A program made the translations under genes and the position numbers. Of a stretch of 64,000 nucleotides of DNA, positions 13,117 to 47,898 are shown one piece after another. Numbering within the stretch: position 1 is the stretch's first letter; each line of letters opens with the position of its first letter. The DNA lies in assembly GCA_021432655.1 (NCBI GenBank), contig MU271191.1:124001-188000 (forward strand), written 5' to 3'. Source of the stretch: Atractiella rhizophila (Eukaryota). Below the pieces are notes generated by a model that worked only from the letters and a program-made list of their open reading frames with translations, did no database searches and was not told the DNA's origin.

Positions 13117-14089
13117 TGATGTGTGTAGGCGACCAACACTATACGTCGAGTCTGCTAATGAAAAGTTTAATCCATTGTCCAAGGGGACGACAAACCTGAT
13201 TCTAAGTAGGACAAGTTCCGACAAGCTTGTGATCGTCGTGAAAAGGATGTGAAACAGCTATCTACGTGCGCAAGGTTTCCAACCCAGGTGAAATAGAATC
13301 ATACTTGATTTGTCGCTGAGGCAACTAGGTAAGTGTCTTGAGCTTCTTCTCAGTGCACATACACAACTCTAATTATCCGAGCTCTCCCTCCACGGTCACG
13401 CATGCTTTTGAGTACTGAGCCTGCGGTGTCGCTTTGGTTTGAGGTGTCCCATGTTGGAGAAGATGCACTCCAAGAAACCGGTATTGGGAACGATCAAAAG
13501 GATGCATATTGCAAAGGTGGAGAGTTAAGACAAACACCACGTTAATAATCGGAGTCGACATCCCTTTCATCCACTCAACCTCTCCTGCTCCACCGCATTC
13601 CTTCGTACCTTCTTGCAGCGTTACTTCACATTCACCGTTCATCTATGGCACCAATTTGTGCCCACAAAAAGGAAAAACACGAACAGAAACATCTTCACCG
13701 CAGTGTGCCATGTTCTGAAGATGCTGAAAGGATAGATAACACAATGCAACGAACGTCTTAAGTAGGAAACCTCATATCCTCATGTAGTCCACATTGAATG
13801 TCTTACACTGCCGAATCATTGCTCGTTCAATTAGGTGCCAATGGTGTGGGTGAGATTAGTATGGATAAGGCTGATAATCAAACTTAAAGAAATAAACCCA
13901 GCGCAAACAAAATATTGCTAGAACCAGAGCACAACAAGAGCACATCTGTCCTTTCTCGATTAGTGATCGTTATCCTCCCCAACTCTGGGACTAGAAACCA
14001 TGCTTGTATCAGCGGCATGGGTTGGGAACTCGCCGGCGCTTTCAGGTTGAATCATGAGCTCTCCATCGGTGGTTCGAATGAGCGCTCCA

Positions 14090-15850
14090 TCGTCTAGGAG
14101 GAACAGGATCCTCTCCGCCAAATTCAAGATTTCACCAGGACCGTAACAAGTGTGACCCATGAGCAATTTTCAGAATGAAAGGACAAACCTTCGTCATCGT
14201 CAATGTCTTGACGAGCAGTGCTTGCATCATCATCTACATCTCCATCGCTGCTCTGTGAATTCGTTTCATTCGGAGGGACAGAGACAATCGCAAGAGCATT
14301 AATCTGACGGAGGAGGGGTCATGAGTTTCGGATGCGTCGTTCCAGTGCTGGATCTATAACAAAGCGATGAGCGGATAAGATAGGCACTCTGGGCTACAAA
14401 GGACTGACCACCTGATTCGAGCGGCCGGACAATCATCCAAACAGCAATGTGTTGGAAGGTCGTGTATTTGTTTTCCAAAAAGCGGGTGAGGTGTCCGTGT
14501 AAACCGCCTTCAAGGTCGTCTCAGAAGGCATTAAAAGAATTGTATTCTTTCTCTGTAGGGAATCTCTTCAGCTGGCGCAGATTCGTTCTCAAATGGCACG
14601 CACCTTTGGAAGATAAATTGCCTATAGCAGCGGCAGTTGTTGCCTTGGACTTCCAGGCCGCTGCTTACTGTGAGAGAAATCAACACCTCTAGGATGCCCA
14701 TCTTTAGAAGATCACTGTTGATATCATCTGTGGGGTACATCCGCCAGCACAGCTTACCGCTCAAGTCCAAAACAGCTGCACAAGCCGTCATCTCAGACTG
14801 GACGCTAATCGGCACAGTTGAGGACAAGTTACTTGATTTTATCCATAGCCCCGGCTTCAACCATACCTGACTTGTTCTTCCCGCTCGACGCCGCGAGATT
14901 CTGGAGAGTGGAGATGGCATGACATTGTATCTCTTCGTTCTCGTCGTATGCCAGCAGATCGATGAGGAGATGAAGGAAGCCGGATTCAATGATGGAGAAC
15001 TCGTTCACGGGATGGATGGAGACACAGGTCGGAGAGGAGAATAAGAGGTAGGAACGATGATCGAAGGAGACGAAGAAGTGGAGGAAGGCCGCCAGATTTG
15101 ACAATCTCAGTTTGAGTTTTCTCTGTTGTGGATTCATAGGAGTTGAGAAGAGAATGAACGAACCATTCAGATGTGAGGTTTCAGAGCGTCAAAGCGGCTT
15201 GATACTGGACCTTAAGCGAAGGGCTGTCCATGAGGGTGATGAGATTCTGAACAAGCTTCGGCTTTGTATTCAATAACTTCTTTCGGTTGTTGGCTGTGAT
15301 GCACCAGTAAGAGAAAGGTTTTGGACAGGAGGAAAAGTAAGCCGGGCCATCAACAGCAAAGTTGGACAGAGCCGTTGTGCAGTAGTACTGGACGTCGGTG
15401 TCAGGAGAGCTGCAGGCTTACAAGGACAGATATTGCTACTGCATTGACGAGCTGTTGGCAATTCTCATCTGTTATAATTTCAGTGAACTCACATTCAGCA
15501 GACTGACGGAGAGAAATCACCGCTCTGTGTCCTGTTCAGGAGAGCACCAGTAGCATTCCGCTGGCCACACATGTCCTTGCTTTTTGCGTAAGAGGAAGAG
15601 AGCACCGGATCTTGCAATCCTAGTTTTATTCTCATCCGGAATGGTATCAGTCCGCAGCCGAAAAAGAATGGTGTGGCTGACCATGAGTTGCAAGGTTGGT
15701 GATGCACCACAGCATAGGACTTCGGTATTTGGACTGAGCATTTGACGAATGAGGGGCTGGAGACCGCCTAGTTGCACGATGAAGAGGTTGTTGTCCGCTG
15801 TCACGATATCGACGGCGAGTACGGTTCCCGAGAGGTTCCAACACATTCAA
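14090..15850 (-). pseudogene. VAC8: Vac8 armadillo-repeat protein pseudogene with introns retained
   Basis: [100 protein letters not shown]. Many frameshifts and stops. N-terminus not recognisable. Confidence 0.9.
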
Positions 15851-17238
15851 CGAACGGTAAGATTATGTGCCCAAAGAAAAGAAATCAGAAAGACCAACCG
15901 ATTGCGTAAATAAGTCCACCAGACAGAGAACGTCAAGAGTGACGATTGCTCCCAGCATGAAAGGCAAACTGCATGCTTCATCAAATGAGCGCGGAGTATA
16001 ACAGCAATCGCCAACGCACTGCTGGTTCTGCTGCGAATACTGCAAAAAGTCCACCTCTCATAACTAATGTCATCAGATAGACGTTCAAGCCACCATTGAT
16101 GATTTGGAAGCAGATAGGGCCTTTGGGAGCAGCGCGGTCATGCCCTCTAATGCAAGGGAGTTCCTGCCTGAACACATAAGTTCATGCTTTCAGACAAGAT
16201 GGCAAGGGAATTATAGGAGGCACAGCAGGCGCACTTGAAGGAGATTCATGGCAAATCTATGATGTCTTCTCTATTTGTTAGGTAGTTGAGTTAGGTATGT
16301 TTGGAGATGTAGACGTGAGGGACGAAGAGGAATACTGTCCCCCGTGAGGGTGCAAAGCCCGCAGCCCAACATGAACTGACAAACGGCACAAAGGACGCAA
16401 CAGCTTCCTATAAACATGGTGGGGCATTGCTATTGCAACAAGCATCGCATTCATTCGAACAAGTTTGCAACCCACATGGATTCATGTCTTGAGTGTTGAG
16501 GATCCTTCGCTTACCCGTGCTAATCTACCTACATCAACAGATTCCGCAAACATTGAACAATTGAGAAAAGGTTGAAGACAATCAGAACCTCGAAAATCGC
16601 CTCACCCAGATGGACTTATTGTTGAGTCTGATGGACGAGATAATCGCGCCACCTTCAACGGCAGACGAAGTGCTGGATCCTTTCTTTCTAGCAACAGTTG
16701 ACGCTATTGGGTTTCGCATCAGGGAAATCATGAAGGATTGGCGGGATTCTAAGCAAGAGGTGTGTCTTCATGTTGCTGGATCATGCGATTATTTTCAACA
16801 GGTTTCCAGCTAGCTCCAATACCGCACACGAGGGAAATGGGAAATGCTGCAGCTGCTCGAACAAGGTAGTGTCAGAAGACTCTTTAGACTCACCAGCTTA
16901 TCTTCCTGAACAGACGGACCTGTTATTCAACATGATCAAACTCTACACGCCACTGACAGGATATTCTCGGCTCGACTATCCGGCGAAAATGCTTCTCTGT
17001 TTCAGGTACATAATCTCTTCCTCTGTTTCCAGAGCAGTTGTCAACGTCAACATCATGATCCTATAGTCCTACATTTTTGGTGAGCTCCATTGCGAAGCTG
17101 TCCTCATCGTTGCTACACCGTGGGACTTTCGTATCTATGCCGATGAAACCATCTCGAGGCTTTTGCGACAAATCCAAGGTCAAGGAATTGAAGTCGCAGT
17201 TGCCGATGTCGCCAGCATGGCCACGATTGCGGCAACTA

Positions 17239-18583
17239 CTGTGTTGACACCAGAACCTTAACAGCTATGCTCAAAAAAATACCATAGATCCTTAACAGCG
17301 CGTCTCTGTACATCCAATAATAATTATATTTATCTCGGATAGCCCGGGAAACCTCACTATGCATCTTATTTCTCAACACACTGAAGTTCAGAAGAGAATC
17401 ACGTTCTTTTGCTCAGATACAGTGCTCCGACTGAGGAGTACTCGTTCTCGAAAAACTGAAACTTGAGCCAGCTCAGAGGGTCGTGATGACAGATGATGAT
17501 GGGTTGCGCACTTTCCTATTTAGGCAACAATCGATCCAGCATGTTCAACTCTCAGCCAATTCCATAAGCAATCCCCAACATTTCAACATGAGAGACCATC
17601 TATTATACTTTAGTGGTTATGTATTAATGATGTAAGTACTCTATTATCCTAATAATGTGAAATAACACTCAAATTAGATTCAGCTTAACCAGCTTCCGGA
17701 CATCCCATTGCCATTGAATCCATTGTGCATCCTAAGCTCTCAAGGAAGTATTGTGCGAAATTTGGCAATGGAGAACTGTGCTGTGTGGAGGAGATTAAAG
17801 TCATGGTGGTGCTACTGGGGTAGAATGGATGGTATTTGATGTTGAAGGCTCTGATGTGGTGAGTACGATTGCTGCATCGGTTCAGGGTCCTGTGTGTGAA
17901 AGAATGGTGTTTTTGCTGTTGGGACGGACAGTCCAAAGTTGACCAGTGACGGAATTTGTTTTGCTGAAGCACTGGCAGCGGCTGGATGGTCTGATGGACC
18001 GGCATGTCGTGCTACCATCTCAGTTAGCATGAGTTTCAAAGGATTGAGGGGAACACACCAGATTTCTGCTTCTGCTTCTGCCTCTGAGCTTCTTCCTTCT
18101 CTTTCCTCTTTGCTTCCCTTGCATTAGCTTTCTCCACTTTTCTCGTTCCTTCTCCGCTTTCTTCTGTGCCGTCTCCGCTTTCTTCCTAGCTGCCTCAGCT
18201 TTCTTCCTCTCTCCTTCCTTTGCCTTCTCCTCTGCTGCTTTTTCAACCTCTAACATTTTCTCCCAAGCATCTGAGCCACTCAACAATCGAGCTGTGGTAG
18301 TCAATTCAGTCTTCTTGGCAGATTTTGTCTTCGAAGCAACCGTGTGACACAACTGCCCAATCTCCCGGCCCATCATCACAACTGACGTCCTCAACCTCCC
18401 CTCTTCAAACTGAGTCCTCACGTGTGCGTTATCCAAAGCTGACAAGGCTCCATAGAGCAGCCTGGAGTCGCTTTTGATGGATAGCTGGATGATCTTACCA
18501 TGTTGATCACGGAAGACCGTACGAGGTTTTTTTTTTGGGTAGAAGTGAGCCGGATTGATGGGAGTGTGCAGGGTTACTGTTAG
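17239..18583 (-). mobile_element. Inverted, 5'-truncated copy of the pogo element's 3' 1345 bp (matches 21547-22891)
   Basis: Reverse-complement match including the right TIR, preceded by TA (17237-17238). ORFs 18020-18631, 17812-18039 and 17685-18005 mirror those at 21547-22445. Confidence 0.97.
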
Positions 18584-19376
18584 GTCAAGTTTGGTGGCCG
18601 GGCGGAAGTGAGTCGTCATCGCTCTCTTCATGATGTCTCCTCCTTAGATTGGTTTGAAAGATGGCATCTTTCAAACCAAACTCATGATTGCTTTTCACTT
18701 TCATTATCGGATCTGACAACGTGTTGCGGGGTTGGGGATAACAGAGGTACATCGAAAAGGCTGAATGCGAGGCTGGAACGAAGTATTTCACCGCTGCTTG
18801 GGAAGAAGGCTCTATCATGCTGAAGAAAGTGATGAAGGTCATTGAATATGAGGCGGGTCAAGAACGCTCCGCGATCAAGGACATTGTGGGTCATGTTTTC
18901 GTTCTAGTTGAGCAGGCAAGGCTGATACGCCAGTATATAGATCGAAAAATCGATCCAAGAAGGGTGGGATATCATCAAGCTCACAGTTACGGTCGTGAAT
19001 GGCTACAACATTCGCCCCAGTGCAGAACTGCAAATCCGTCTTGCTTACATTGTAAGTATGCTTTCTCCATTTGATATGTATATGCTGATTTGTTGGATAA
19101 GCGGTCTTTACGTGCCGGCCAACACGGTGACGTCACAACTAGGAATTTCTGGAATCAGGTCGATGCAAAGATGGCAGACGTGCGTAAGAGTTTGACAGCC
19201 ACGACGTGTGTATAGTTCTTTGGCTTTCATCTACCTGTTTATACTTACAAGATGTGCGAGGTTCTATTCAGAATGCTTAGCTTGGGACCAGGGCAAGTGG
19301 CCGGTTCAGCAAAGCTCAAGAGACTCCCTTCGAGATGTCGAGACTCTGGCTACTGGCGTCTGAGCATGAGCCTATA

Positions 19377-22300
19377 CTGTGTTGACACCAGAACCTTAAC
19401 AGACCCAGATCCTTAACACCACATATTAATGTCCCTCAAAATTCGCTCCAGCCCTTAGATATTCTGGATTCAAGATCTTCGCACCTGTGTGCAGATTTTG
19501 TCTCCAAACAGCGAGACCATTGCTTGTAATCTCTCAGGGATATCAATGAAAATGTAGTGTTTCATAAAATCTGTGTTTTTCAACTACCTATTTGCAATTA
19601 CTGGATTTTTTTCTTCGCAATCTCAAGAATTAGGTCAAGTCTTTCATATTCCAAACACCCTTAATGATCTTATTGCAAGTTGCTGAAAGACAGCCTGTTG
19701 AAGGCAATCCAACTTGAGGAGGCAAAGTGCGCAAAATGCGCAAATTAGAGTAAAGTGCGCAGCAGGACACGCTTTTGGGTCACATGCAAGCGGAACAACC
19801 GCGCAGTCTGTTTGATTGTCTTTGATTGTCTTCTTTGACACGACACGCCTTCCGTCGTTTCCTCACACTTCCCACCATCCTCCAAATGCCTCGTTGGAAG
19901 AAGAAAGGTCCGACAGAGGCTCAGGAGGTAGCTGCCCAGAGAGAAAAGGATTTTGTTGAGGCGGTAAATATTTATTGGGAAAGGAGAGAGGAGGCTAAGA
20001 GGGCAAATAACCCGAAGTGTGTCATCTCCTTCAGAGCGCTATTGCGCCAGTACTCCTATCCAAATGGCAAGGGAGGGATTGTTTTCATGAATTATGGTAC
20101 ACTGAGGCTGCGGTGTCAAGGAGGCTTAAGTCGCACCGAAAGTCATGAGCATCAGAGGCTGCTCAGTGCTGGAGAAGAAGATGCCCTTGTCAGCTGGCTT
20201 CGATGGGTTGGTGATTCCGGCCTACCTCTTCACCGGAGAGGCTTGAACTTAGTGGTCAAGAAGATTATTGGAAGAGTACCAGGGAAGAAGTGGTATCCCA
20301 GTTTCATGAAGCGGAAGAAAGTCGAAATTAAGACGTTCAGAGCAAATCCCTTAGATCCCAAACGTGCGAAGGCATTTAATCGGACAAATCTAAATTCTTA
20401 TTTTGATTTGATTGAGGAGACAATGCACAAGCATAAGATAAGATGGTGTGATGTTGCAAATATGGACGAGAAGGGATTGCAACTGGGAGCAGGTCGAAAG
20501 TTGGGGAAACGGCGTGTTATTGGTGCTGCTGAGAGGAAATCGGTATATCGGGCAAAGTCAGACAAGCTCGAGCTGGTTACACTTATTGAATGTGTCACTG
20601 CAGATGGGAATTCTCTGCCTCCGCTTTTTATCTTCTCCGGCAAGCGTTTTATGAAGAACTGGCTAGAGGGTTTGACAGAAGCGCAAAAGAATGGCATTTT
20701 GTACGCCTTTTTTGTCTTCAGCTTAAGTGCTTTTATGTATGCTCAGAATATCACTCTAGTGTCGGGATATCAGAGAATGGATGGACGGATGAGGTGCTAG
20801 GCTATCTATGGTTCACACTGGTTTACGTCCCTTTCGTCAAAAGTCAACCTGATCCAAAGCATCCTTGTCTTCTCATCCTTGACGGCCATGGTTCCCATGC
20901 ATCGGCACTCATTATTCGCTATGTCTGGGAAAACCTTCGCGACATTGTCAATATAATTTGTCTCCCTCCCCATACAACCCACAAATTGCAACCTCTCAAC
21001 GTTGGTGTGTTCGGGCCGATTGGAAAAGCTTGGAGCGACGTGACGGATGATATGTTGGAGGATGGTCATGAAGTCTCCAAGAGAAATCTTATCAAGAGGT
21101 ACTTACGATGGCATGATGAAGGAATGAAGGCTTCAACAATTGTCAGTGCTTGGGCAGCTACCGGACTCTTAGTCCATGACCACTCCGGAAGGGAATTTGT
21201 GAGTCGAAATCACTTTGCGGAAGCCGACTTTGCTCCTGCCCGTCAAACCTCGTCTAGAACACAGTTGCCAGATTGTATTCCTCCGGACCTCGAACTTGCC
21301 CTCACCAGCTCATCCAGCCATTCTGACAACGATGACGACTCTGATCACCCATCCAATCCAGAGGAACCTCCCACAATTGAGCATGGATTCTATCTCATTG
21401 ACCCAACAACCTGCCTCCCTTACGAACAAGCACCTACTCCTGTTACACTTCCGGCCTGCCCCCTACATCGATCCGAACCTCAAGCCAGCATTCCAGCACC
21501 CGACCCACCACAACCTCCACTGACCAATCCCCCAGCTCGGAGCTCTCTAACAGTAACCCTGTACACTCCCATCAATCCGGCTCACTTCTACCCAAAAAAA
21601 AAACCTCGTACGGTCTTCCGTGATCAACATGGTAAGATCATCCAGCTATCCATCAAAAGCGACTCCAGGCTGCTCTATGGAGCCTTGTCAGCTTTGGATA
21701 ACGCACACGTGAGGACTCAGTTTGAAGAGGGGAGGTTGAGGACGTCAGTTGTGATGATGGGCCGGGAGATTGGGCAGTTGTGTCACACGGTTGCTTCGAA
21801 GACAAAATCTGCCAAGAAGACTGAATTGACTACCACAGCTCGATTGTTGAGTGGCTCAGATGCTTGGGAGAAAATGTTAGAGGTTGAAAAAGCAGCAGAG
21901 GAGAAGGCAAAGGAAGGAGAGAGGAAGAAAGCTGAGGCAGCTAGGAAGAAAGCGGAGACGGCACAGAAGAAAGCGGAGAAGGAACGAGAAAAGTGGAGAA
22001 AGCTAATGCAAGGGAAGCAAAGAGGAAAGAGAAGGAAGAAGCTCAGAGGCAGAAGCAGAAGCAGAAATCTGGTGTGTTCCCCTCAATCCTTTGAAACTCA
22101 TGCTAACTGAGATGGTAGCACGACATGCCGGCCCATCAGACCATCCAGCCGCTGCCAGTGCTTCAGCAAAACAAATTCCGTCACTGGTCAACTTTGGACT
22201 GTCCGTCCCAACAGCAAAAACACCATTCTTTCACACACAGGACCCTGAACCGATGCAGCAATCGTACTCACCACATCAGAGCCTTCAACATCAAATACCA

Positions 22301-22891
22301 TCCATTCTACCCCAGTAGCACCACCATGACTTTAATCTCCTCCACACAGCACAGTTCTCCATTGCCAAATTTCGCACAATACTTCCCTGAGAGCTTAGGA
22401 TGCACAACGGATTCAATGGCAATGGGATGTCCGGAAGCTGGTTAAGCTGAATCTAATTTGAGTGTTATTTCACATTATTAGGATAATAGAGTACTTACAT
22501 CATTAATACATAACCACTAAAGTATAATAGATGGTCTCTCATGTTGAAATGTTGGGGATTGCTTATGGAATTGGCTGAGAGTTGAACATGCTGGATCGAT
22601 TGTTGCCTAAATAGGAAAGTGCGCAACCCATCATCATCTGTCATCACGACCCTCTGAGCTGGCTCAAGTTTCAGTTTTTCGAGAACGAGTACTCCTCAGT
22701 CGGAGCACTGTATCTGAGCAAAAGAACGTGATTCTCTTCTGAACTTCAGTGTGTTGAGAAATAAGATGCATAGTGAGGTTTCCCGGGCTATCCGAGATAA
22801 ATATAATTATTATTGGATGTACAGAGACGCGCTGTTAAGGATCTATGGTATTTTTTTGAGCATAGCTGTTAAGGTTCTGGTGTCAATACAG
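19377..22891 (+). mobile_element. pogo/Fot1-family DNA transposon, full length (3515 bp)
   Basis: 26-bp TIRs CTGT(G/A)TTGACACCAGAACCTTAACAG at 19377-19402 and 22866-22891. Internal AGATCCTTAACA repeat at both ends. TA on both sides. Confidence 0.95.
19886..22110 (+). CDS. pogo/Fot1 transposase (CENP-B-type HTH + DDE_1); third catalytic Asp replaced by Asn
   Basis: LLSAGEEDALVSW, NMDEKG, IECVTADG..LPPLFIF, intron ~20701-20759, SENGWTD, LILDGHGSH, LPPHTTHKLQPLNVGVF. Confidence 0.9.
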
Positions 22892-22893
22892 TA

Positions 22894-24244
22894 TAGGTAA
22901 CGTCTTTTCCCGTTTCGTTCTGCAAATGTCTCTCTCATTGATATATAGGGCAGCACGCTTCAAGCTCCTCAGTGGCCGATCCACGCTGTGCTCTTTCTCA
23001 GCTACTTCAAAAGTGATGCGGATGCATCTACCCTCTCGTATACCGGTATACAAAAGTCTGGCCATTATGCAATATAACAATCGCAATTGAGCCTTAAGGA
23101 CCATTAGCGCTTGAATCGTGTCCGGTTTGAGGCGTGCATGGCGGATCCCTATTGTGTCGCGTGCTCCGCTGAAGAGACGTTCGACAGCTACGGAACAGCC
23201 GTCATGTAAATCATTAGTCTTGTGAGCTTGCACTAACGTAATGAGAAGGGTGAATGTAATGAAAGACAGACCTGGAATAGAGAGGATATCCCTCGCCATC
23301 TGAGACCACTCCTTCAAATCTGTTTTCGACTGCAAACGATAAATCTCCAACGGATCCTCCGTCCAGTCCAATGGAGGAAGACTGAACCAAAGGTTTGGTT
23401 GCTGATCCTCATCCTCGTGAAACACCTTTGCTCGTTGATTTGCCTTCTGCATAAGCTTTGCTGAATATGTGAGTGGTGTTGCTGCAGAGGTTAGAACGTG
23501 CTTGTAAAGCCACGAAGTCGTCTAAGACAACAAGTAATTGAGTTAAAATCAGGATGAGAAGAGCAAGAGAAAACAACTGTACATAGTCTTTGTCCGGTCA
23601 TATGGTTGTAACGGCCGCCCTTAAGACTTCCAGCTCATCATAACCGGGAATGGTTGAATTTCTATGATGAAGAAAATATCGAGTCAACATTGGCACAGGG
23701 AGACGGCAGAATGGATAGACATACACCTCCTGTTCCCATTTCTTTCTCTCTCTCTCACTGATTGCCGTCCCTTCTTCGTTATTCCTACGCACCATGTCCA
23801 TCAATTTGATTTGTCTGGCTGGCTTTGATGGAGCCATATTGGAAGACTGACAATTAGACGATTCTGTCCAAAGGCATGGCACTCTTTTATCAATGGTCGG
23901 GATCAGGGAGGCACTGGTGGAACTAGTCAGCTCTTGTTCGGTGAGAATATTCTGGAGGTGGTTTGACTTACATTAGAAAGGCGCGTCATACACCGTGAAC
24001 ACAGAGAAATCTTCAATCTTCTAATCATACCAGGCACACTGCCGCACCAGCTAGCAGGCACAGTTGGAAGCTTGACGTATTGGCGGACGAAAACGGTAAT
24101 GCCTTCCTCTTGCCTGCCGCACGTTGTTAGGTCACGTCGAAGATGTGTGTGGTAGAGACGGGTTCCTTTGTGCTAGGCGCACGCCAAAAAAGACGGGAAC
24201 GTCGCACGGGTTCCGAACCCCTCCCGCCCCGTTGTGCATCCCTA
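22894..24244 (-). mobile_element. Internally deleted (Ds-like) hAT element; 3' terminus not found
   Basis: Ac-like terminus TAGGGATGCAC on the minus strand at 24244, with ACGGG subterminal motifs. A short N-terminal piece lies close to the C-terminal dimerisation domain (MARDILSIPG / SVAVERLFSGARDTIGIRHARLKPDTI); most of the catalytic core is absent. Confidence 0.8.
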
Positions 24245-24399
24245 CTGTCTCTGAAGGAAAAAAAAATAAATACATAGAGATATGGCTATGTTGAAACTTG
24301 AAATGTGATCGCACCTTCCGACATCAATACCCAATGTGTTTTCCTGTCAAGTCGCTTGAACGCAACGTATATGATGCCGTTGTTGCCCTGTATAACATG

Positions 24400-24939
24400 T
24401 ACTAACGATGAGTGAACATTAAAAAAGCGGAGGACAAAACACACACCTCGTATATACATCAAAAAATGCAATTCCACATTGCTTCGCCATTATCTATCGT
24501 ATTTTAGACGTGAGTAGCGCAAATGGGAGGCCTAAGATGTAGCTTCAACGACGTATAATGTATATTGGGAATGAGTGAACATTAAAAAAAGCGGAGGACA
24601 AAACACGCACCTCATATACATCAAAAAACGCAATTCCTCATTGCTTCGCTATTATCCATTGTTTTTTAGACGTGAGGGCGAGGAGCGATGGGCTTCGGGG
24701 CTAGATATTACTACGTATAATGCGTAATAAGAGTGAGCAAACATCAAAAAGCGAAGGAAAAAATACACACCCTATATATGTCAAACATATGATTCCATAT
24801 TACTTCGCCATTATCCATTGTATCTCAGGCGTGAGTACATCGAATGCGAGGCCGGAGAGCTAGCTATCACGATGTATAAGGATTATTAGCATTGAGGGGA
24901 TATTAACAAAGCAGAGCATCAACTCACATTATATTTACA
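24400..24939. repeat. Degenerate tandem repeat, ~160-bp unit, 3 copies plus a partial fourth
   Basis: TGAGTGAACATTAAAAAAGCGGAGGACAAAACAC...CTTCGCCATTATC...CGTGAG recurs at ~24409, ~24572 and ~24733. A partial unit at ~24892 ends at the Helitron junction. Confidence 0.85.
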
Positions 24940-24951
24940 CAAGTGTGTCAG

Positions 24952-25119
24952 TGCCCTCGTCCCTCGGGCATCTCCCCCCGCCAGGGGCTTCGCCCCTTGG
25001 ACCCAGCCTCTGGCAGCCACTGCGTGGGGCATCGCCTTCGGCGAGCACAGACTCACCATATGTACTCTACTCTTTTCAAAAAACAATGAAAAGCTGAGTG
25101 GCCTCCTCGTACCTCGGAG
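24952..25119 (-). terminator. Cluster of four stem-loops at the Helitron 3' end
   Basis: 24952-24970 TGCCC/GGGCA; 24983-24997 AGGGGC-TTC-GCCCCT; 25032-25044 TCGCC-TTC-GGCGA; 25103-25119 CTCC/GGAG. Confidence 0.75.
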
Positions 25120-25166
25120 AACCACTTCAGCTTTGACTGTACTGTTAGGAACATGCTGAGAGATGA

Positions 25167-28100
25167 TCAGTGATTGAATACTCGTAACACTTCCTTGTAA
25201 ACTACATTATCTGTTTGCTTGTTTTCTTCTCCTTGCTTTGTTTTGACCAATACTCGTAAATTGTTCGCGTTTGAAACCCGTGAAAGACCAACATAAAGCT
25301 GCCCATGAGAGAAAGGAGAAGACTCTAAGTACAAACCCGCATGTCCAACAGATTGTCCTTGCGCTTTATTCAGAGTTAAGGCAAACGCTAAGCGCACAGG
25401 GAATTGAAAGCGCCGGAATTGAAAAGGAAGCTGGTTTGATACTGCACTGTCAACGCCAATTCGAGGAATGAGAACTGATTCGCCACTGTGTGCACCTGTA
25501 ATGATGGTTGCTTCGATGACTCGTGGAGAAGCTGAGTGACAATGAGCCGCGTGCCGTTGCACAGGCCAGCAGATGGATTGAGATTTCGCAGAAGAATGAT
25601 GGGTGCACCGGTCTTGAGGTGTAAACGATGCGAAGGGAATCCAGAGATCTCCAGGGTATTCAGGTACTCGACCGAGAAGCGATTTCTGAGATCTCCCTCG
25701 TCATCTATAATTTGATCTGCACTGTAATATACCCGATCTCCTGTGGGTTCGAGCCACTGAATCAAGTGATCATTGATGCCATCCACATCCACATTTTTTG
25801 CTGCTAGAATCATGCGAACCCAGAAGTATTCTTAAAGGAAGCTCAGAGGAGGGATATTTCACAGCGAATCTATTTGTCGGTAAATTGAGCACAACAGACC
25901 ATCTAGTCCTTTGTGGGATGGAATAATAGATCCATCTGGTATCATTACGGCTCCACATCCATTGCCTGATGGATCATCAATGAGACCATTTCCAACATCA
26001 AGGAGCCACTGGGCAAATCTGGTTGCACCCTGAAATTCGGCTGGTGCCATTTCCTGTTGGCCTCGAAGAAGGCGCATATTGGTTTTCAAAGGGCAGGACT
26101 TGAACATTCAGCCAGAAGTAAGAATTAATGATGCAGGCATCCACAATCTGAGCTCGGCTTCCATTTGGCACTACCGGAAGACACTGTCTGCCATCTCCTG
26201 TGAACAGTATGTCAATAAAGAACTACTTAAAGGGAAGTATCATACCACAGAAAACCATAAGTGTTCCTCCAAATGGTCTTGAATCCTTTTTAAGGTCCTG
26301 TCCCAACCGATCCACACAGCTGACGGAGAGGCGATCACTCATAATGGCTTCATCCCACAGGATAATTTCTGCCTTGACATATAGCCTTCCATGATCACTT
26401 TGAGCCGAAATACCACAAACTGATTGAGCATCTGCATTGAGGGGAATCTTGAATCGTATATGAGCAGTACGACCACCTTCAAGCAGAATAGCAGCAATTC
26501 CAGAAGAGGCTACTGCCAGTGCAATCTTCTTGGATGATCTTACTCTTGCCAGTATAAGATTCTGAACAAAAGTCTTTCCAGTTCCTCCAGGCCCATCAAG
26601 AAAGAAGAGTCCTCCGGTACCACTCTGCCAGGCTTCGATGATTGTATCGTATGCATGTCGTTGATCCTCATTCATAAGAGGAAGATCCCTATCAAGACGT
26701 TGCTCCAACTCTGTAACGTTGTATGCCAGCTCTTCTCCAATTATTCTTGTCTCTCCTCCCCATCGTCCAAACCTGTAAGCAGGTAATGGCAGCCTATACT
26801 CCTCTAGTGTCTTGCCTAGACCATGTAGCAGATCCTCTAGTTCGATAAGGCATAAGTCTCGGATCTGATCTTCAGAAGGTGCAGCGATTCCATAAACTGT
26901 TTGCAGACGATGCGCACAATCATCATTGAGCTTGTCATAGTGTCTTCGAAACAGTTGTAATGGTTCGCTGGCAACCCCAAAGACCACAATATAGACAAAA
27001 AGAGAGCGGATTGCTGATCCTCGTTTGATTGCGTTGGCATCTTCCAGACACAGATCCCATTCTTTGTCACTTTCCAGTAGACCTGACGCCACACAGGCTG
27101 CTTTGAATGTTTCGTGAACTTGACCATCAATTGTACAAATATCTTCAAAAGATTTAGGACTGGGGATCTTGTGAAGAAGTAGTCGAAGATAAAATAGCTC
27201 CCCTTGTAACGGCGCAATATAATATATCCGACCAATAGCATCACCTTTCTCACGTATCTTCCAGCGCTTTGAACTACTCTGCCAGACCAAATGTCGAGGT
27301 GCTTGAGGATAGGTCCACAATCGGGAGACCTGGGGAGAGTCACGGCAAAATTGAAAAAAATTCGCTAAGCATTGTTTTCCCAATGTTTCTCCTTGAAAGT
27401 ATATCTTCAGGTTGATCATCTTCTGCATTAAAAATGACCATCTGTTGATTTGGAAGATGAATGCTCAGTCGAATCACAGTTGGAGAGTGATCATGAAGCT
27501 TGAAGTGGAAAATTCGCCAGCATGCTACAACCATACTTAACCCTTAACCTTTGAGGAATGGACTGAACAAACCTTCTGAAGCACCCACATATCGTGCATC
27601 TAAATACTCTTTAATCTCATCCACTGGCTCTCTTGCTCCACTGAAATCTGATTCGATGACTAATTGTGCTCTATCCGGCCCCGTGTATACATATTTGAAC
27701 ATATACTTGACTGAGCGAATTGAGATGCAGATCTCAGTGTTGATGTGAGCCAGAAACTTCCTCAGGACCCAAGCATTAAAAGTCACTACCCATCGATTAT
27801 CATATATAAACTCTTGGCCACGTATCATCTTGTGAAAAACCCGGCTGTCGTTACGCCGCCGATAGGTAGGGTAGCCATTATCATTGATTCTCGTTTCCTC
27901 AACAAAAGGCTTGGGATACCCTTTGCCACACTTCCCATTGACCATGCAAGGTGCACCTGGATTATGTTCACCACATGGGCCATGTAGCATATGCTTGGTG
28001 ACTATTTCAAATAATACAGGATCCTTGTCCAGATCAGGCAGCTCTGATTGAATTACTTGATCAATAGTCGCCTCGTCCCTGATAAGATCTTTAGGATGAA

Positions 28101-30058
28101 GAATCAACAGGATGTGCGCATGTGGTAGACCCCTCTTCTGAAATTCAATGACCCAGACATATCCGATAACCCTTCCAAAGATCTGTCGTACCACTAAATC
28201 CTTGATGTACTCCAGAGCCTTCAGTCGAAAAACCCTTGAAACTAAATCTGGCCGATCCTCAGGTTTTTGTCCTGGTAGGATGGCTTCCGTGATCTCTGCC
28301 CAGTGTAGGTTGTAAGTGAAGGTTGTAAAGATATTTGGGAGTCCTTTGGCACCAACTATACCCATTGCATCCTGGAACAGCTGATTCATTGAACGTGGAC
28401 CGCCAGTGAAACTTGATGGTAATATAGTCCGCCTCCCAATATCTTCCAAAGAATAGCCTTCTGTAAGGGCATCCGTAAGACCTTGATACACCTCAGCTCG
28501 AAGAATAGACTGATTGAACCGCAGATAGCGGAGTCGATTCGCCTCAATTTGAGCATAAGCATCGACTACCAATTCTTGCAGTAGCTGACCACCGTAGAGA
28601 GGGAGTGAGAATATATCATTTCATTGATGCAACATGTAAGAATAGAACTCCATTTGGCTGACATGTTGTCGAACCCCGGAATTACCAACTTGCATGCTGT
28701 CATCATTGAAGTGCTCTCGCTCACGAGGAGGAAGATCGGCAGGCAGGTCTCGATACGGAATCTGTGGATGCCATCCTTGGTCCCCATATGGAAACAGAAG
28801 AGGAAAACGAAGTGGAAGGTAATTTGAGTTAAGCTCATTGACACGCTGTAAGTTGCTACCGGTTGTGGTTGCCCTGAGCTGGATGATAATATCTCTGGCC
28901 ACTCCATATTCTTCTCTGTTACCATCTCCTACCATCGCTACAGCAACTTCACTGGCTACAGGAATGTTGTAGCGTCTTGGGTCCCTATCTCGTGGAGCGA
29001 CTGTGCGAAGATGTAGTGTGGTAGTGGGATCCTGTTCCATTCTTTCCTTCGCAAATTTGTAGATCCTGGGATATGGTTTGACACGGAAGAGCATAGCCTG
29101 AAGGTCCTCAAGCGTACTACAATTCAGTGAGACTGAAGTGTTGCCAACTCTTCGTTCAGTCTGTACAGCTGAATCTATAATGTAGACCTGTGCAAATGTT
29201 TCACACCCTTCTTGTTGTGGTAAAAGAGTACCAATAAGGTGGCACAGCTCTCCCTGAATTTTGAAGGAATAGGGACCATGTCCAGGAAGTGATACCTGGC
29301 GGACGCCTAAGGATGTAAAGGCAAAAGCATTATTGAATACCCTGATATGCTCTCGAAATGCCTTTGATTCTATAATGATTGTTCCTCTCAGATAATGTAT
29401 ATGCAAAAAAATTGAATAGAAATACTTACCTGTTGTATTGTCATGTGTGAAAAGCTTTCGTAGCTTTTCAGGTGGAGGCAGAGGAACAGGCAGCAGCACC
29501 TGCTGTGGAGACAGCACAATGCAAACTTTGGATTTCGTTGTGGGCTGTTAACGATCTTCTCTTCCATCCAATGAAAGGCTTTGCAATGTGTACAAAGTAA
29601 TCCCCAAGTAGAGAGGTGGTGTGCCTCAAGATCCATATCAGGTGAGTAGTTGAATGCAGGATAGTGATGTTGCCTTATTTCGCCTCGCAACAACGGGATT
29701 AATGCCCTTCCTCATCACTGTCCACACCATCAGGATCAGGAGAGGATGGGTATGATCAGGTTTCTTCTTCACTGTACTCCTCAGGGGAGGGTGAATGCTG
29801 TCTCCAATGTCGTCGAGCTGGTCGTGATGATATAGATAGTGAAGAGCTTCGATGGTGCCACTGACACTGACGTGGAGCCCTAGTTGATCTTGTCTCATGT
29901 TGAGATGGAGTAGGTGGAGTAGGATTAAAACGTGCAGGGCGTTGCCTCTCTCTTACAGGTCGACCTTGGTATAGTGGTGCCTCCTGCTGCAGACATTGAT
30001 GCCGTTTGGATCGACGCTCTCGATTTCTTGTTTGATTTCTCTGAATTGCACGTGGCAT
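25167..30058 (-). pseudogene. Helitron RepHel (Rep HUH endonuclease + PIF1 helicase), intron-containing, with nonsense/frameshift lesions
   Basis: FTTFTYN, EFQKRGLPHAHIL, KYMFKY. Walker A GPGGTGKT, ASSGIAAILL.GGRTAH, DEA, LRNLN...GLCNGTRL, QFPVRLAFALTLNKAQGQS, HGQLYVGLSRV. In-frame TGA at 28621-28623 and a frame change near 25520. Confidence 0.95.
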
Positions 30059-40900: not shown

Positions 40901-42741
40901 TACCATCTCATCGGCCACTCCTGACGGCAACATCATTCACCTTGCCACCTCCTCCGGGCCAACAGTGGGCACAACCTTTCAATCTCCTGACGAACTTCCC
41001 GATCTTGTCCCTCTTGGCGATGAAGATGAAGGAGATTCTGTACCATATCAAGACATCTTGACATCGCTGTTCATACCTTTCGAGGTGGAAGATGGACGTG
41101 CTGTGGCAAGACTACCGGAAGATGAGATAGATATAACTCCAATGACTTTCACATTCAATGATGATGTTGGAACTGCTGTTCAACGGGTGAGACACCTCTT
41201 TTAACGATGTGATGAGCCTTCACTGATAGCAATGGCTAGTTGCGAACGATTGTTAAATGCATGCGCTCATCGCCACAGAAGAGAGAAGTGTGGTTCAGGC
41301 TCCTGCGATCGAATTTGGCAAACAGTGAGGAGTCGGAGAAGGTCCTCATCCTCGATGTGCGCACACGTTGGTCTTCAACATGTGCTATGTTGAAACGTGC
41401 ACTGCTCTTCCGACAAACGGTTGATGACTTTTCGAGGTGGTGCACTGACGATCTAAAATGTGTGCGACTAAGCGAGAGTGACTGGAATGCGATTCACTTG
41501 GTCTCCACCTGGCTAGAAGAATTTGCAGAGGTCACCGCCCTTATGTCGTCCACCTCCGATGTCACTATCAGCAGCGTCATCCTTCTCTTCGTAGGCCTGT
41601 TCGAAAAACTCGAGAATGCAGTCGCTACTCTTCCTCCGCAAACCCCACGACAGGTGAAAGAAGGACTTGAGAGAGCCCATCAAAAGCTCGGCAAGTACTA
41701 TAGCAAAGTGGAATCATTTCCTTATTACTATTGGGCAATTCGTGCGTTTCTCCTCATGCTGCTCATTTGGGTTTACAAAAGAGGACTTATTGCAAAAAAG
41801 TGCTCGATCCAAGGCATGGTTTGGCGACGTTTGAAGACGAACGCTATGGGTTTGTTAAGCACATGGTTGATTCTGCAAAAGAGGCACTGAAAGGGAAGTT
41901 TAATTGCGAGTACAGCCATCGCACATCAACCTCCTCTACCAAGGACTCTCAGGGACAGGAAGCTTTATCATCCAATACATCAGTGACCAAGCAAAAGCTC
42001 GGAGAACGCATCGGACGTCGAGTATCAACAGCAGCCACCAACAACGGGCATATCCTTGATCGATTTTGGAAACGTCTCCAAAAGCTTCAAGACCCGGAGG
42101 ATGGATCACCAGAAGTCGACGACAATACTGACCCGTTAGATTGGTGGAGCAAACAGGCCAACGGTGGGCGGTTCGAAGCTATGGCTCCACTAGCAAGGAG
42201 TATTCTTTGCATTCCAGGTGCGTTTCTATCTGGTTTAGCATCAACCACTGATGTTGCTACTTTGCAGCTTCTGCCGTTGCCGTTGAACGAGTCTTCTCTT
42301 CAGGGAGAGACGTCATTTCACTTCGTCGTGCTTCTCTCAAAGCCGACACCATTCGCAGGCTCATGCTGTTGCGGTCATGGTGGATGTTGGACACGTCTCA
42401 GGGTGGGAGATTGCAATGGCTCTTTGAGGCTTCCACTATTCCTTCTGCACAAGAAATCATTAACCTTGATATGGACATCGATTGAACATTGATTGCATTG
42501 TTGTACATCGGAGGGCTCCATATAGGTTAGCATAATGCATGGATTCTCGCTCCTCCTCACCCCTTGATATGACGACGGACGCCTCAACCGTCCGTCTGGA
42601 CAACATCCCGTCCCGTCTACCGTCCCGTCACCGTCAAAGGAAGTTGGGCAACAATGCGGACGGGTTGTGCGGGACGGGTGCAACCCGTTCCGTCACCGTC
42701 ATAAGACAAAATTCGACAGGACGGGACGGTGAAGACCCCTA
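37909..42741 (+). mobile_element. hAT transposon, full length (4833 bp); flanking 8-mers do not match
   Basis: 17-bp TIR TAGGG(C/G)TCTTCACCGTC with one mismatch. Dense CCGTC/GACGG subterminal repeats at both ends. Flanks are CTCATAGT and CTTGTGGA. Confidence 0.95.
38930..42485 (+). CDS. hAT transposase, apparently intact after splicing; possible extra 5' exons from 38621
   Basis: Manual splicing of 8 GT-AG introns gives one frame: BED finger CRKC...LIRHTTSH, SVDNWTS, SDNASSN, RCLPHIVHL, LDVRTRWSST, LDPR, ARSILCIPASAVAVERVFS. Stop at 42483-42485. Confidence 0.88.
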
Positions 42742-42870
42742 CTTGTGGATACAATGTTCTAGAATCTTCAGAAAAGTAAGATAAGACAAAACGCGAGAAC
42801 TTGTGGCAAAAAGGAACGTTCTAGAATTGCCACTCAAGTGAGATGGCAGGATGAATCATGAACGACAACA
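42742..42870 (-). repeat. Copia 3' LTR remnant (129 of 184 bp)
   Basis: Matches 47174-47302 with one visible mismatch and abuts the hAT right TIR. Confidence 0.95.
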
Positions 42871-42877
42871 CACCCCC

Positions 42878-45800
42878 TCAGACTGCCATCAATCCCATCT
42901 CTTCGCAAAACTTCTCCACCTTCTGTCTTGGTAATGCTTTCGTAAAGATGTCCGCAAGGTTTTCTTGTGTGGGGATGTACGCAACTGATATAGCTCGTGT
43001 CTCGACTTGATCGCGGATGAAATGATGGATGATATCGACATGTTTCGTGCGTCGGTGGAATTCTGGGTTGTGAGCGAGAGCAATGGCTCCTTGATTGTCG
43101 CAGAAAAGTGTCGTAGGCTCGTTGTTTTGGATTCCTAGGTCCGTAATAGCTTTCGAAGCCAAATAGCTTCACGGGCGGCATGCGAGAGGGCGACATACTC
43201 AGCTTCCGTTGTTGAACGTGCTGTTGCAGTCTGTTTCTTCGCAGACCAGGATATTGCGCCTCCTGAAAGTAAATAAGCATATCCAGAGATAGCCTTCCTC
43301 CCATTTGCTTCACTTGAATTTCCATCTGCATCCGTAAATCCTACAGCTTTGTCGATTTCGCCTCCGTTTCCTCCATAAACGAGAGAATAGTCCTTTGTGG
43401 ACTTAAGGTACTGAAAAACGCGTTTCACCGCTGTCCAGTGAGTTGAGCTTGGGTTTGAGGAGAACTGTGATAGGGTTTGGACTGCAAATGCGATGTCGGG
43501 GCGTGTAGCAATTGCAGCATACATTAGAGAGCCGATGGCTGCTTGATACAGCCTCTGGGCTTCGGGATTGACTTCCCTTTCATTGGGGAGTAGCTTGGTG
43601 TTTGTGTCGAGAGGGGTGGACACTGGCTTGGCATCTTGCAGTCAGTATTTCGTGATGATTTGATTGATGTAGTTGGCTTGGGAAAGTGTAATGGTTCTGT
43701 CCTGGTGATTTCGTGTGATTTGAATCCCAAGAAGTTGAACTCCTTCTCCTTGATCTGTTGCATCGAAGGTTTGTTGGATGGCCCTCTTAACTTCTGCTAT
43801 CTCATCGTCATCGTTTCCAACAATCATAAGGTCATCCACCCAAACAACAATGATAACCATCTTTCCTTCTCTCCTCCTCACATAAACACAGTAGTCCGCA
43901 TTTGATCTCCTGAATTCGAGCTCCATTAGAGCTTTATTAAGACGGACATTCCAGATTCGCCCTGACTGTTTCAGTCCGTAAAGTCCTTTGACGAGTTTGA
44001 AGACCTTTCCTGTGCCATCATCGAAACCAGGAGGTTGCTTCATGTAGAGGTTAAGCTCCTCCTCTAAATCTCCATTCAAGTAAGCTCCTACTACATCCAT
44101 AAGGTGTATCTTCCAGCCATTGGCTGCTGCAAGTGTGATGATTGCTCGCAAAGACTCCATTCGAGCAACTGGGGCAAATGTTTGATTGAAATCTTGCCCA
44201 GGGATTTGGCTAAATCCCTGTGCTACAAGTCTTGCTTTGTAGCGCTTTACCCGTCCTTCTTCATCTCTCTTTCGACGGAAGACCCACTTAGCGCCTATGG
44301 CTTTTCGATCTTTCGGCAACTTCACCAATTTTTTCTCCCAGGTTCCATACTTTTCTAACTGGTTAATCTCATCTTCCATTGCCTCCTCCCATTGTTTAGA
44401 TTCATTAGATTCCTTTGCTTCTTCATAACTGGTAAAATCGTCACTTGAGGTGATCGAAGTTGCGAAGGCAAATGCGAAGTTGCCAGCCGCATCCGTTGGA
44501 GGTAAATTTAGTTCTGGTGCAGTCGTCAACGGAGTCGTTGATTTTGTTCGTGATTTTGGTCTTGCCTTTCCATAGTTCAAGGTATAGTAGTCCACCGCAG
44601 GCCTTGCTCGCTTTCCTAACCCTGATTCATAGGTCTCGATTCTTGGTCTCGCACCTTCGTTTGGTTGGGGTTCAGGCTTCGGGAGTGGTTCTGGAGATGA
44701 GGGTGTTACTTGAGCATTTTCTTCTGCTGGTGCGTCTTTTCCTTGATCTTCTTCACTTGGGTAAGAGGTGTCTGTAGTGATTTCAACTTCTTTTGGTTCT
44801 TCTTCGGCGAAGATGTAGTTTCGTGATACGAGTATCTTTCCATTCTTTGGATTGAAATAGCGGATTGCCTTTGGTCCATCCTCGTATCCAACAAAGATGA
44901 CTTTGATTGACTTGGGGTCTAGTTTGGATCTTTCATTTCTCTCGTCAAGGACCCATACATCCATTCCAAACTCCTGGAGATGCTCGACTGTTGGTCTCTG
45001 GGTGGTCCATGCTTCGTGTGGGGTTTCATACCCTAGGGCTCGTGTGATGGAGCGATTTCTAAGGTAAGCAGCATGTCTTACTGCTTCAGCCCACAGTTTA
45101 GGACTGAGATTTTTCGCAATCAGCATTGCCCGTGCGAGTTCAATCAGAGTGCGGTTCATGCGTTCCGCCACTCCGAGTTGTTGATGTGAGTGTGGTGCGG
45201 TGAGTTCTAGCTTTATTCCTTTCTCTCTTTCTAGCCAGTCTTTGACTTTTTCGTTTAGGTATTCTGTTCCCCTATCGACTCGAATGCGCTTTGGGGTCCG
45301 TTCGTACTTTCGTTCGACGAGGTTGATATATGATTGGATGCGCTGGAGCGCTTGTTCTTTCATTGACATGAAGAGGACCGTTGTGCGGCGCGTACAGTCA
45401 TCCGTAAATGAGATGTAGTATTTGGACCCACCGTAGGAGGGAACCCACGATGGTCCCCAAACGTCAGAGTATGTAAGTTCGCCGGGTGTTTCTGACCTCA
45501 TTGACGCTTCGTGGGGATAGGCTCCATGTGCCTGCTTTGCTTGGATACAGGCTTCGCACTGCGAAGGTGAGCTCGTTTCATCTACTGTCATTCCATCAAC
45601 AAATCCCTTCTTGTGCAGCTCTTCCAGTGTCTTTGCATTGATGTGGCCAAATGCACAGTGCCACTCGTCCCACGTTCGCGCTGGTTTCTCTGCTGCTGCC
45701 ATCGCCTTTTCACCCCCTCGTTCTATACTTTGAAGTAGGTACAGGTTTCCCTTCTTTATTCCTTCTCCTAGCAACTGATCACTCTTGTTTACCAGTTGTA

Positions 45801-47012
45801 CTTTTCCTCCTCCGAAGACAGCCTTGCCGCCTGCGTTGTCGACTCTACTGATAGAGAGAAGGTTGTTTGGTGCTGAAGGTGCGTAGAGGGTGTCTTTTAG
45901 TGTGTTGACGATGATCTGACTACCGACTTTGATAGCCAGTTTGTATGTTCCGCGCACAGTTGCCTCGATTGGTGTTTCGGAGAGACCATGTATCTTGAAG
46001 TTTGATAAAGGTACGCATGTTTCCTTTATGAAACCGTTGCGATCATTTGTGATGTGTGAGGTAGTTCCGGAGTCGGCTAGCCAGGTGGTCTTAGGGAGCG
46101 AGCCGTCGAAGTGGTCTTGCGCGTGGTATGCTGAGTCGGCGAGGCGTCATTGATGTTCGAGGTTCCTGAGGCTTGGTAAGCCTTTTCCCTCTTCCCTCTT
46201 CCGAAATTCCTTAGTTTCTGACCTTCCTTTCCTCCTCCCTTAGCCCAGCACTCCGCTTTCATGTGCCCTTTCTTGTGGCAGTTGAAGCATTCGACGTCGG
46301 ATCTGTCTCCCCTGCCTCCTGCTTTCGGCTTCACCATCCTCTTTCCTTTCGCAAATAGCGCTGTCTCTAGCGCTCCTGACTTCTCCTTCCTCCGCCTTTC
46401 TTCTTCGATCAGCAGTGCCGATAGTTCGTGCAAGGACAAGGTCGGTTTGTTCGAATGCGCTCCGAAATATGCGGATGTGAAGGTGTCCCACGACTCTGGC
46501 AGCGACGTAATTAGGAGGAATGCGAAGTCGTCGTCCTTGAGTGTATCCCCCATTAAGGCAAGTTCTTCCTGAATTCCTCTAAATGTGGAGATGTGTTCCA
46601 CCATACTGAATCCTTCCTCAGCGTACGAGCGATACAACCGCCGTCTCGCCGCTAGGATTCCCAAGATCCCTTTCGACTCTTTCACCGTGCACAACTGCTT
46701 CCACATTTCCGCCGCCGTCTTTGCTCCAGCCAAATGTATCAGCTCGCCATCGGTGATCGTCAGCTCGATGCACGTCTGCGCCTTCGCGTCTTTCGCATCC
46801 CATTCGTCGAGCTCCCTCTGGTTCCTCACAATGTCTTCTTCGCCATCAGTGCCTTTCTCCACTATGGGGGTAGGTCTTCTCTTTAGCTTCGCTCCTGTGA
46901 CATAGTCTAACAGGTCAAGTTCTCGTAGGACCGCCGTGATGCGTCGTTTGTACGCCACCCAGTTATTCGACTTGAGCGGCTCGATCTTGAATGCATTGAA
47001 GGACTCGGACAT
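42878..47012 (-). pseudogene. Copia Gag-Pol with about four frame disruptions
   Basis: Zinc knuckle CFNCHKKGHMKAEC. Protease WLADSGTTSH. Integrase WH..FGH/CEAC, SDVWGP, VDRGTEY, GVAERMNRTL. RT YKARLVAQGFSQ, LYGLKQSGR, WVDD. RNase H STTEAEY, FCDNQGA, RTKHVDI. Confidence 0.95.
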
Positions 47013-47106
47013 GGTTGCGTGGGGTTGCTAGCGGGGATTGGTGCGTGGGTGCGTTGTTTCTTTCGTGCTTAGTTGGTAGGGTGCCGTTTTGTGTTATGGG
47101 CTTGTT

Positions 47107-47118
47107 GGGCTCATAACC
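47107..47118 (-). promoter_or_regulatory. Primer-binding site GGTTATGAGCCC
   Basis: Lies immediately 3' of the 5' LTR and resembles the internal tRNA-iMet-fragment type PBS of copia-like elements. Confidence 0.8.
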
Positions 47119-47302
47119 TGTTGTTATTGTAGAACGTTATATTAATTATTTCGCTTTTCAGAGCCTTTATATACTTGTGGATACAATGTTCTAGAATCTT
47201 CAGAAAAGTAAGATAAGACAAAACGCGAGAACTTGTGGCAAAAAGAAACGTTCTAGAATTGCCACTCAAGTGAGATGGCAGGATGAATCATGAACGACAA
47301 CA
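47119..47302 (-). repeat. Copia 5' LTR (184 bp)
   Basis: Inverted termini TGTTG...CAACA. Confidence 0.95.
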
Positions 47303-47898
47303 CAAACAAAGTGGTTTTCTTGTCACGGTCAGGCTTGCACTCCTTGACCACACCACTAAGCTAAAAGGGTAAGAGAATAGCAACTCAGTTGCTATCTATT
47401 GTGCAAGACCTATGTAGGATAATCACTGACACTCAAACACAACGTCCACTACCTGTGGAAACAACATGGGTACAACTGCCTACATCGGCGCACTGTGAGA
47501 AACCCTGACACAAAGACAGATACAATTACGTTTTGATCTACAAAGATGCCATAGACGTGTACAGTTTCAAAGAGCACAATACAGAGGATCACGTGGGCTA
47601 AGCCATACCGATAAGTACTTCTACTCAGAAGACGGCGTAATGATCGGCAATTACAATACCAAATTTAGAGGTCCTTTAAGGTATCTTAGATGTCGTCTTT
47701 CTGAAGATGTTTCCAAGCATCAGTGCCTTTTCCTAAGCCAGATCATTTCGCACCTCAGCAACTCGCTCATGGCCTCAACAAACAGCCCGAAACTAATGCT
47801 ATCCCCTATATTTTCGAAGTATTCAAGTGCCGAACTCCCTATGACTTTTCCTATCAGCGTCAAATTAGCGGCTATTTAAAGGGTTCAAGAACGTTGAA

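Follow-up and report, generated by a model that had tools for sequence, protein, structure and literature searches.

An inverted copy of its own 3′ end beside a pogo-type transposon in Atractiella rhizophila, probably a local rearrangement scar

Architecture of the locus

In a 64,000-nucleotide stretch of contig MU271191.1 of the fungus Atractiella rhizophila (assembly GCA_021432655.1), hereafter the window, a full-length pogo/Fot1-type DNA transposon lies next to an inverted copy of its own 3′ end, between remnants of two host genes that we call gene A and gene B (Table 1). The left arm of this inverted repeat is the reverse complement of the right arm over 1345 bp, ungapped and with five mismatches, all of them transitions (17243/22887, 17722/22408, 17743/22387, 17998/22132, and 18568/21562), a match far above chance (BLAST E 0.0). 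The arms are spaced 2963 nt apart. Each ends outward in a right-end terminal inverted repeat (TIR) with a TA immediately outside, and the left TIR of the element begins only after a spacer of 793 bp; one of the five changed sites, 22887, falls within the right-hand TIR. An earlier note on this DNA, made from the letters alone, had described exactly such a 1345-bp inverted repeat with five transitions and two outer right TIRs each beside TA, and both descriptions held when the arms were aligned to each other. The inverted repeat is confirmed as real in the assembly, and the window contains no N. This structure is established in the assembly only, as the reads compared come from other strains or samples. 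Among the 119 loci examined it is the only inverted repeat of at least 100 bp with more than 90% identity, in a comparison set of 509,403 overlapping and transposon-rich bases that does not amount to a genome-wide count.

Table 1. Features in and around the inverted repeat, in window coordinates (X3 and X6 are runs from other samples)
Feature	Position	Strand	Remarks
Host gene A, 5′ fragment	16336..17238	+	multi-copy; cut by the arm at the TA 17237-17238
Left arm	17239..18583	-	inverted copy of the element's final 1345 bp; perfect right TIR at 17239-17264
Antisense intron 1	17632..17677	+	GT..AG; joint 17631>17678 in one X3 RNA contig, depth 4, from another sample and copy
Antisense intron 2	17859..18267	+	joint 17858>18267, also in that X3 contig; other copies have 408 nt
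Antisense intron 3, inferred placement	18519..18571	+	skip 21559>21614 in one X6 contig (run type unrecorded), depth 6
Inner junction	18582..18585	.	element interior joined to the middle of gene B via the 2-nt microhomology AG (18582-18583); from comparison of element, window and C67
Spacer	18584..19376	+	exons and introns from the middle of host gene B, 5′ part absent; copies on contigs C3 and C67, 97%
Full-length pogo/Fot1-type DNA transposon	19377..22891	+	3515 bp; 26-bp TIRs; TA duplication at 19375-19376 and 22892-22893
Transposase gene	19886..22110	+	722 codons; one inferred intron 20701-20759; motifs MDEKG / LDGH / QPLNV
Right arm	21547..22891	+	3′ end of the resident element; one change in the TIR (22887)
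Gene B remainder	22892..23079	+	contiguous with the spacer on C67; then interrupted by a hAT-type fragment on the minus strand

The resident element and its family

The pogo identity proposed earlier was borne out by a DDE_1 domain match in the transposase (45.3 bits, cut-off 22), by homologues carrying HTH_Tnp_Tc5 (matched in five of the six scanned, in four above cut-off), by the TIRs, which start with CTGT, and by a TA outside all 16 TIR matches in the genome, the window itself contributing three. These are the common features of pogo/Fot1-type Tc1-mariner elements of fungi, from most of whose homologues the window element differs in the spacing between the second and third catalytic residues (38 residues instead of 35). 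A HMMER search returned 3227 transposase homologues. A homologue search with the first transposase exon found none among the longer proteins, and a Pfam scan of this N-terminal exon gave no HTH match. The third catalytic position reads Asn where Asp is expected. Asp occupies it in 29 of 33 motif-matching library homologues (among the 150 listed), as it does in 11 of 16 loci of the genome; of the other five, the window reads Asn, one has Glu, two have His, and one lacks the motif. In DDD transposases the loss of the third Asp abolishes catalysis. The window transposase lacks the intact DDD triad required of an autonomous pogo element and, because its third catalytic Asp reads Asn, it looks catalytically dead, so the resident element is probably disabled.

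At least 59 matches to the family occur in the genome. The closer copies that were aligned (on C2, C3, C5, C64, and C270) are each truncated, gapped, or broken by stops, and stops interrupt the DDE exon in those on C16, C247, C337, C554, and C1691. Open frames are present in loci of 72-75% protein identity, which represent a separate lineage; among the best-scoring candidates covered, the assembly yielded no close relative that is intact. Family members also include a derivative of about 550 bp that retains both pogo ends (L085, C99:32551-33098) and a copy whose pieces lie in opposing orientations (C16:69002-71941).

Host genes and empty insertion sites

Gene A paralogs on C5 and C187 run uninterrupted through the TA at which the arm cuts the window copy, with no insertion, and X6 contains a spliced contig from an uninterrupted gene A copy. 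Compared with C1935, C1125, C77, and C70, the window lacks about 330 bp of the region upstream of gene A, at about 16333-16336. Downstream in the C5 paralog there is a weak F-box-like match (E 9e-5, under the curated cut-off); neither the 5′ piece of gene A nor the gene B exon gave a Pfam match.

The spacer had been described as 793 bp of unrelated sequence. Its length was correct, but it is not anonymous: it comes from the central part of a spliced host gene, of which the genome contains two further copies. Both of these (C3 and C67) are preceded by gene B 5′ sequence, and the arm is found at neither. GT..AG splice joints of gene B occur on the plus strand in contigs of X3 and X6. On C67 the spacer continues straight into the sequence that follows 22891 in the window over a single TA, which is the exact empty site of the simple element. 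The corresponding joint, 19374>22892, is present in contigs of X1 and X2, from another strain, and both empty sites (gene A and gene B) are found in other-strain contigs. The hAT-type fragment that interrupts the gene B remainder is spanned by a minus-strand open reading frame with a Dimer_Tnp_hAT match.

C3 has the same gene B insertion as the window, represented by the left end only, at 1.15% divergence. The C3 spacer itself (L037/L038, C3:283926-285930) is much nearer to the empty C67 copy (L040) than to the window; in 24 variable spacer columns it agrees with the window at just two substitutions and two gap columns. Paralogs that recombined, an element that excised precisely, or a TA site used more than once could account for this pattern. 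A small inverted repeat with 23-nt arms (87%) in a gene B intron (18641-18687) is kept on both C3 and C67.

Antisense transcription of the family

In other samples, the pogo family is transcribed in antisense over its 3′ part. The RNA concerned (window 17580-18410 on the plus strand and 21450-22057; X3 and X6) appears to be spliced and is probably non-coding, and it might start in the element itself or in flanking genes. The antisense contigs carry the letters of other copies, and one of them extends beyond the arm breakpoint. The acceptor AG of intron 2 lies one base later in the window than in all three other copies covering the site, and the antisense GT..AG of intron 3 is kept in four of four. 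For the window copy, the antisense strand was also considered as the site of a second protein-coding gene; this was rejected, the longest ATG-started frame in the spliced arm having 61 codons.

Origin of the inverted arm

Both arms carry 16 substitutions that are absent from every other copy covering those sites, and because of these shared private changes the arm can be assigned to the lineage of the resident copy. The changes extend over the whole arm length, from 21630 to 22804, and are accompanied by a 1-nt deletion near 21989 (absent in all three copies covering the site) and a longer A-run in both arms. Divergence between the arms is 0.37% (95% interval 0.12-0.87%), compared with 1.9-9.0% to six other copies, and the derived changes are distributed over both sides (two left, three right). 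Hypermutation resembling repeat-induced point mutation was rejected for the arms, given five changes in 1345 bp with one at CpG. The insertion in gene B probably predates the arm, since C3 shares it at 1.15% divergence against 0.37% between the arms, with the divergence intervals overlapping. The missing pieces of the two genes did not turn up as displaced copies: at length, the continuation of gene A was found on the paralogs C5 and C187 only, plus two short matches of 73-77%, and the 5′ part of gene B on C67 and C3 only.

We consider it likely that the locus is a recent scar of a local rearrangement that arose from the resident pogo copy, with part of the element duplicated in inverted orientation at a deletion breakpoint, within DNA dense in transposons. 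The element inserted alone into a TA of gene B, as the empty site shows. A transposase probably joined, at a later time, a right end of the same lineage to the TA in gene A in inverted orientation; this junction is visible in the sequence, the enzyme being the presumed agent. The interior of the new copy would then have been fused to the middle of gene B, a junction likewise visible and suggestive of microhomology-type repair, with loss of the left 2170 bp of the new copy, of what remained of gene A, and of the beginning of gene B. The last two steps might have been an inverted local hop and a subsequent deletion, or a single aborted sister-chromatid transposition or template switch as in Ac killer of maize. 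An aborted sister-chromatid event would directly yield the form in which the middle segment is flipped. Aberrant transposition of impala in Fusarium is reportedly the topic of a paper.

Several points weigh against this rearrangement origin or its details. The hop with deletion and the one-step event are indistinguishable. No locus with genes A and B linked was found. In the reads compared, the inner junction was not confirmed, nor was the direction in which the middle segment runs; no contig among those listed bridges 18583/18584, which proves nothing, all of them being from other strains or samples. The comparison used four of the nine listed runs (X1, X2, X3, and X6). The two best DNA runs contain 0.57 and 0.48 of the words, with differing letters throughout the spacer, which shows that they are not from the window's strain. 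The assembly is scaffolded and fragmented (1998 contigs, with N runs in 13 of the 119 loci examined) and is able to collapse young copies. An active, intact copy may be hidden in this way or below the best candidates, and in one DNA run the depth over the left half of the element is several-fold above that of single-copy DNA, a poor measure of copy number.

Other explanations of the structure have to account for the same junctions and letters. Fragmentation, scaffolding, N runs, arms that are identical over stretches of up to about 570 bp, and the unbridged inner junction would all suit an assembly artefact, in which copies of the repeat from distinct loci were put together or the segment between the arms was turned round. 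We nevertheless regard this as quite unlikely: the arms differ at five sites with changes on either side, the outer junction shows the exact TA|TIR boundary of an insertion, the inner one shares only 2 nt and seems too short for an overlap join, no N lies within the window, and a flip by itself would keep the inverted repeat intact. Gene conversion between nearby inverted repeats is a known process, and two older, independent insertions homogenised over their shared part would likewise show shared private changes. That these are shared along the whole arm (21630-22804), which local copying explains in one step, makes gene conversion highly improbable here. The 5.65-kb unit between the outer right ends had also been proposed as a composite transposon, each outer end being a TIR adjoining TA, and paired right ends are mobilised in vitro by the mariner transposases Mos1 and Mboumar-9 (PMC4505599), which makes a later movement of the unit conceivable. 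The substrates in that work were engineered, whereas no right-right movement is seen at the window locus. The outer ends are not halves of one target, because the left flank belongs to gene A, unrelated to the original gene B flank that the right end retains, and the two genes have separate empty sites. The spacer occurs three times in the genome with the arm beside the window copy only, and the outer flanks are joined directly in none of the 119 loci examined. Given the different flanking genes and the arm-free spacer copies, the unit therefore did not insert as a composite; it did not move as one, and the proposal is contradicted as history. A genome search for the unit, which the earlier note had suggested, found neither a second copy nor a whole-unit empty site in this one assembly. 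With the right TIR mutated and Asn at the third catalytic position of the local transposase, we judge it extremely improbable that the right-right unit is a composite transposon that has moved or moves as one.

A silencing hairpin on top of the scar?

A silencing function is compatible with the rearrangement origin and can hold on top of it. Under this proposal, similar to Mu killer of maize, a transcript starting in gene A, or at a putative antisense promoter in the right end of the arm, would continue across spacer and element into the right arm and fold back on itself, and the resulting small interfering RNAs (siRNAs) would silence, or would once have silenced, the family. Pairing would be extensive, as 1241 of 1325 21-nt windows match perfectly, or 720 of 817 after antisense splicing, and each of the six other copies covering the arm is less similar to it than the arms are to one another. 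Profile searches found Piwi matches on five contigs, Dicer_dimer on two, and RdRP on ten. Spliced antisense contigs from the right end of the family occur in X3 and X6, from two studies; plus-strand splicing is seen in copies of both host genes and points into the hairpin, the 3′ end of gene B lies past the right arm, and AATAAA is absent from the plus strand between 16300 and 23100, a weak criterion in fungi. Gene A or the antisense transcription of the family probably sends some plus-strand RNA into the arm. It is possible, though somewhat doubtful, that a transcript crosses the 3-kb loop, folds into long double-stranded RNA (dsRNA), and feeds RNA interference.

The weight of the remaining evidence makes the full silencer unlikely. 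Read-through, dsRNA, or small RNA of this locus was not seen in the contigs listed, and none of the nine listed runs is a small-RNA run. The antisense contigs derive from other copies, and each joint rests on a single contig at a depth of 4-6. The loop to be crossed measures 2963 nt, and the approximately 330 bp upstream of gene A are gone. The arms span the 3′ end, unlike the promoter end found in Mu killer and Ac killer, although coverage of the 5′ end is not a requirement for dsRNA formation. At least 71 perfectly matched 21-mers are present in just five of 20 family loci (some of them overlapping) and none in ten, and an intact target was not found in the assembly. A search for DNA methylases gave a single weak match, and only one of the five arm changes is at CpG. 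Since the resident transposase looks dead and no intact close relative was found, a hairpin RNA, if made, most likely has little to silence now. A bolder version, a fungal ‘pogo killer’ in which the antisense unit was severed from its terminator and is spliced through the host remnant into the sense strand, with siRNAs shutting down the last active lineage, seems rather improbable.

The earlier note expected siRNAs concentrated on the duplicated 1345 bp as a sign of the hairpin. As family members in other samples make spliced antisense RNA there, siRNAs over the 3′ 1.3 kb are expected without any hairpin. Such a concentration is not decisive, and siRNAs with arm-specific letters and the edge at 21547 would be needed.

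Other features of the window

Upstream of gene A, pieces of an Armadillo-repeat gene (14000-16336, minus strand) lie in a stretch of which at least seven long copies occur elsewhere (84-93%) and which stands head to head with gene A on C1935; it is a multi-copy segment, captured or duplicated. An element on the minus strand at 42740-47304 lies between 133-bp direct repeats (99%) and has a 76% relative on C109; judged by eye, its two frames (316 and 834 codons) resemble gag/pol. A 528-bp direct repeat (50795-51322 and 52422-52948, 95%) encloses no long frame. Helitron-like remains occur at 1-2250 and 24390-29550, with a Pif1 2B domain at 25388-25810, two related Rep-like stretches (80-1094 and 27850-28842, 66%), and short tandem repeats near 24390-24910.

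Comparison with known systems

The closest structural counterpart is Mu killer (Muk) of maize, which duplicates the 5′ TIRA/mudrA end and silences MuDR in trans; that account disputes the flanking-promoter hairpin model and favours short antisense transcripts from within Muk (PMC3440606). Both loci are natural inverted duplications of about 1.3 kb of a DNA transposon, with the same TIR at both outer ends and, on the flanks, host genes whose transcription could read through. The window locus differs in that it duplicates the 3′ end, encloses a complete element plus 793 bp of a host gene, and concerns pogo in a fungus. Its arms and the left end share the 26-bp TIR only, so that the duplicated 5′ end and promoter of the maize killers have no equivalent here. 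The parallel with Mu killer drawn earlier is appropriate as a structural likeness; the duplicated end is the 3′ and not the 5′ one, and on present evidence the locus is not a member of the Mu killer type.

Mu killer and Ac killer have in common that part of a DNA transposon was naturally duplicated in inverted orientation, and the window shows this trait too. In the Ac killer alleles p1-ww-id1 and id4, inverted fragments are attributed to sister-chromatid transposition, aborted re-replication, and fusion of broken ends; transcription proceeds from host or element promoters, and dsRNA, siRNAs, and heritable repression were measured (bioRxiv 10.1101/2020.01.07.897926). The proposed aborted sister-chromatid origin of inverted transposon fragments may be shared with the window locus. 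The Ac fragments, however, are 5′ ends inserted within one host gene, whereas in the window two different genes form the outer flanks, and at the right end the donor flank is retained. For Tc1/mariner elements, fold-back of read-through RNA and transcription of both strands are among the described sources of transposon dsRNA (PMC3878927). In Tc1 the stem is the terminal repeat; the stem in the window would be formed by coding and 3′ sequence and measure up to 1345 bp. Neither a fungal killer locus nor an antisense transcript of pogo turned up in a narrow literature search that left most subscription papers outside, which is weak evidence; a search on the organism gave general reviews only.

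The locus represents a well-resolved case of a common product of DNA transposons, the inverted partial duplication at a deletion breakpoint. Hairpin siRNAs are directly testable at this locus through the five letters specific to the arms and the abrupt edge at 21547. If such siRNAs and the silencing proved true, the element's own antisense transcription would be implicated as a driver, and the route of de novo silencing known from Mu killer and Ac killer would extend from maize to a fungus.

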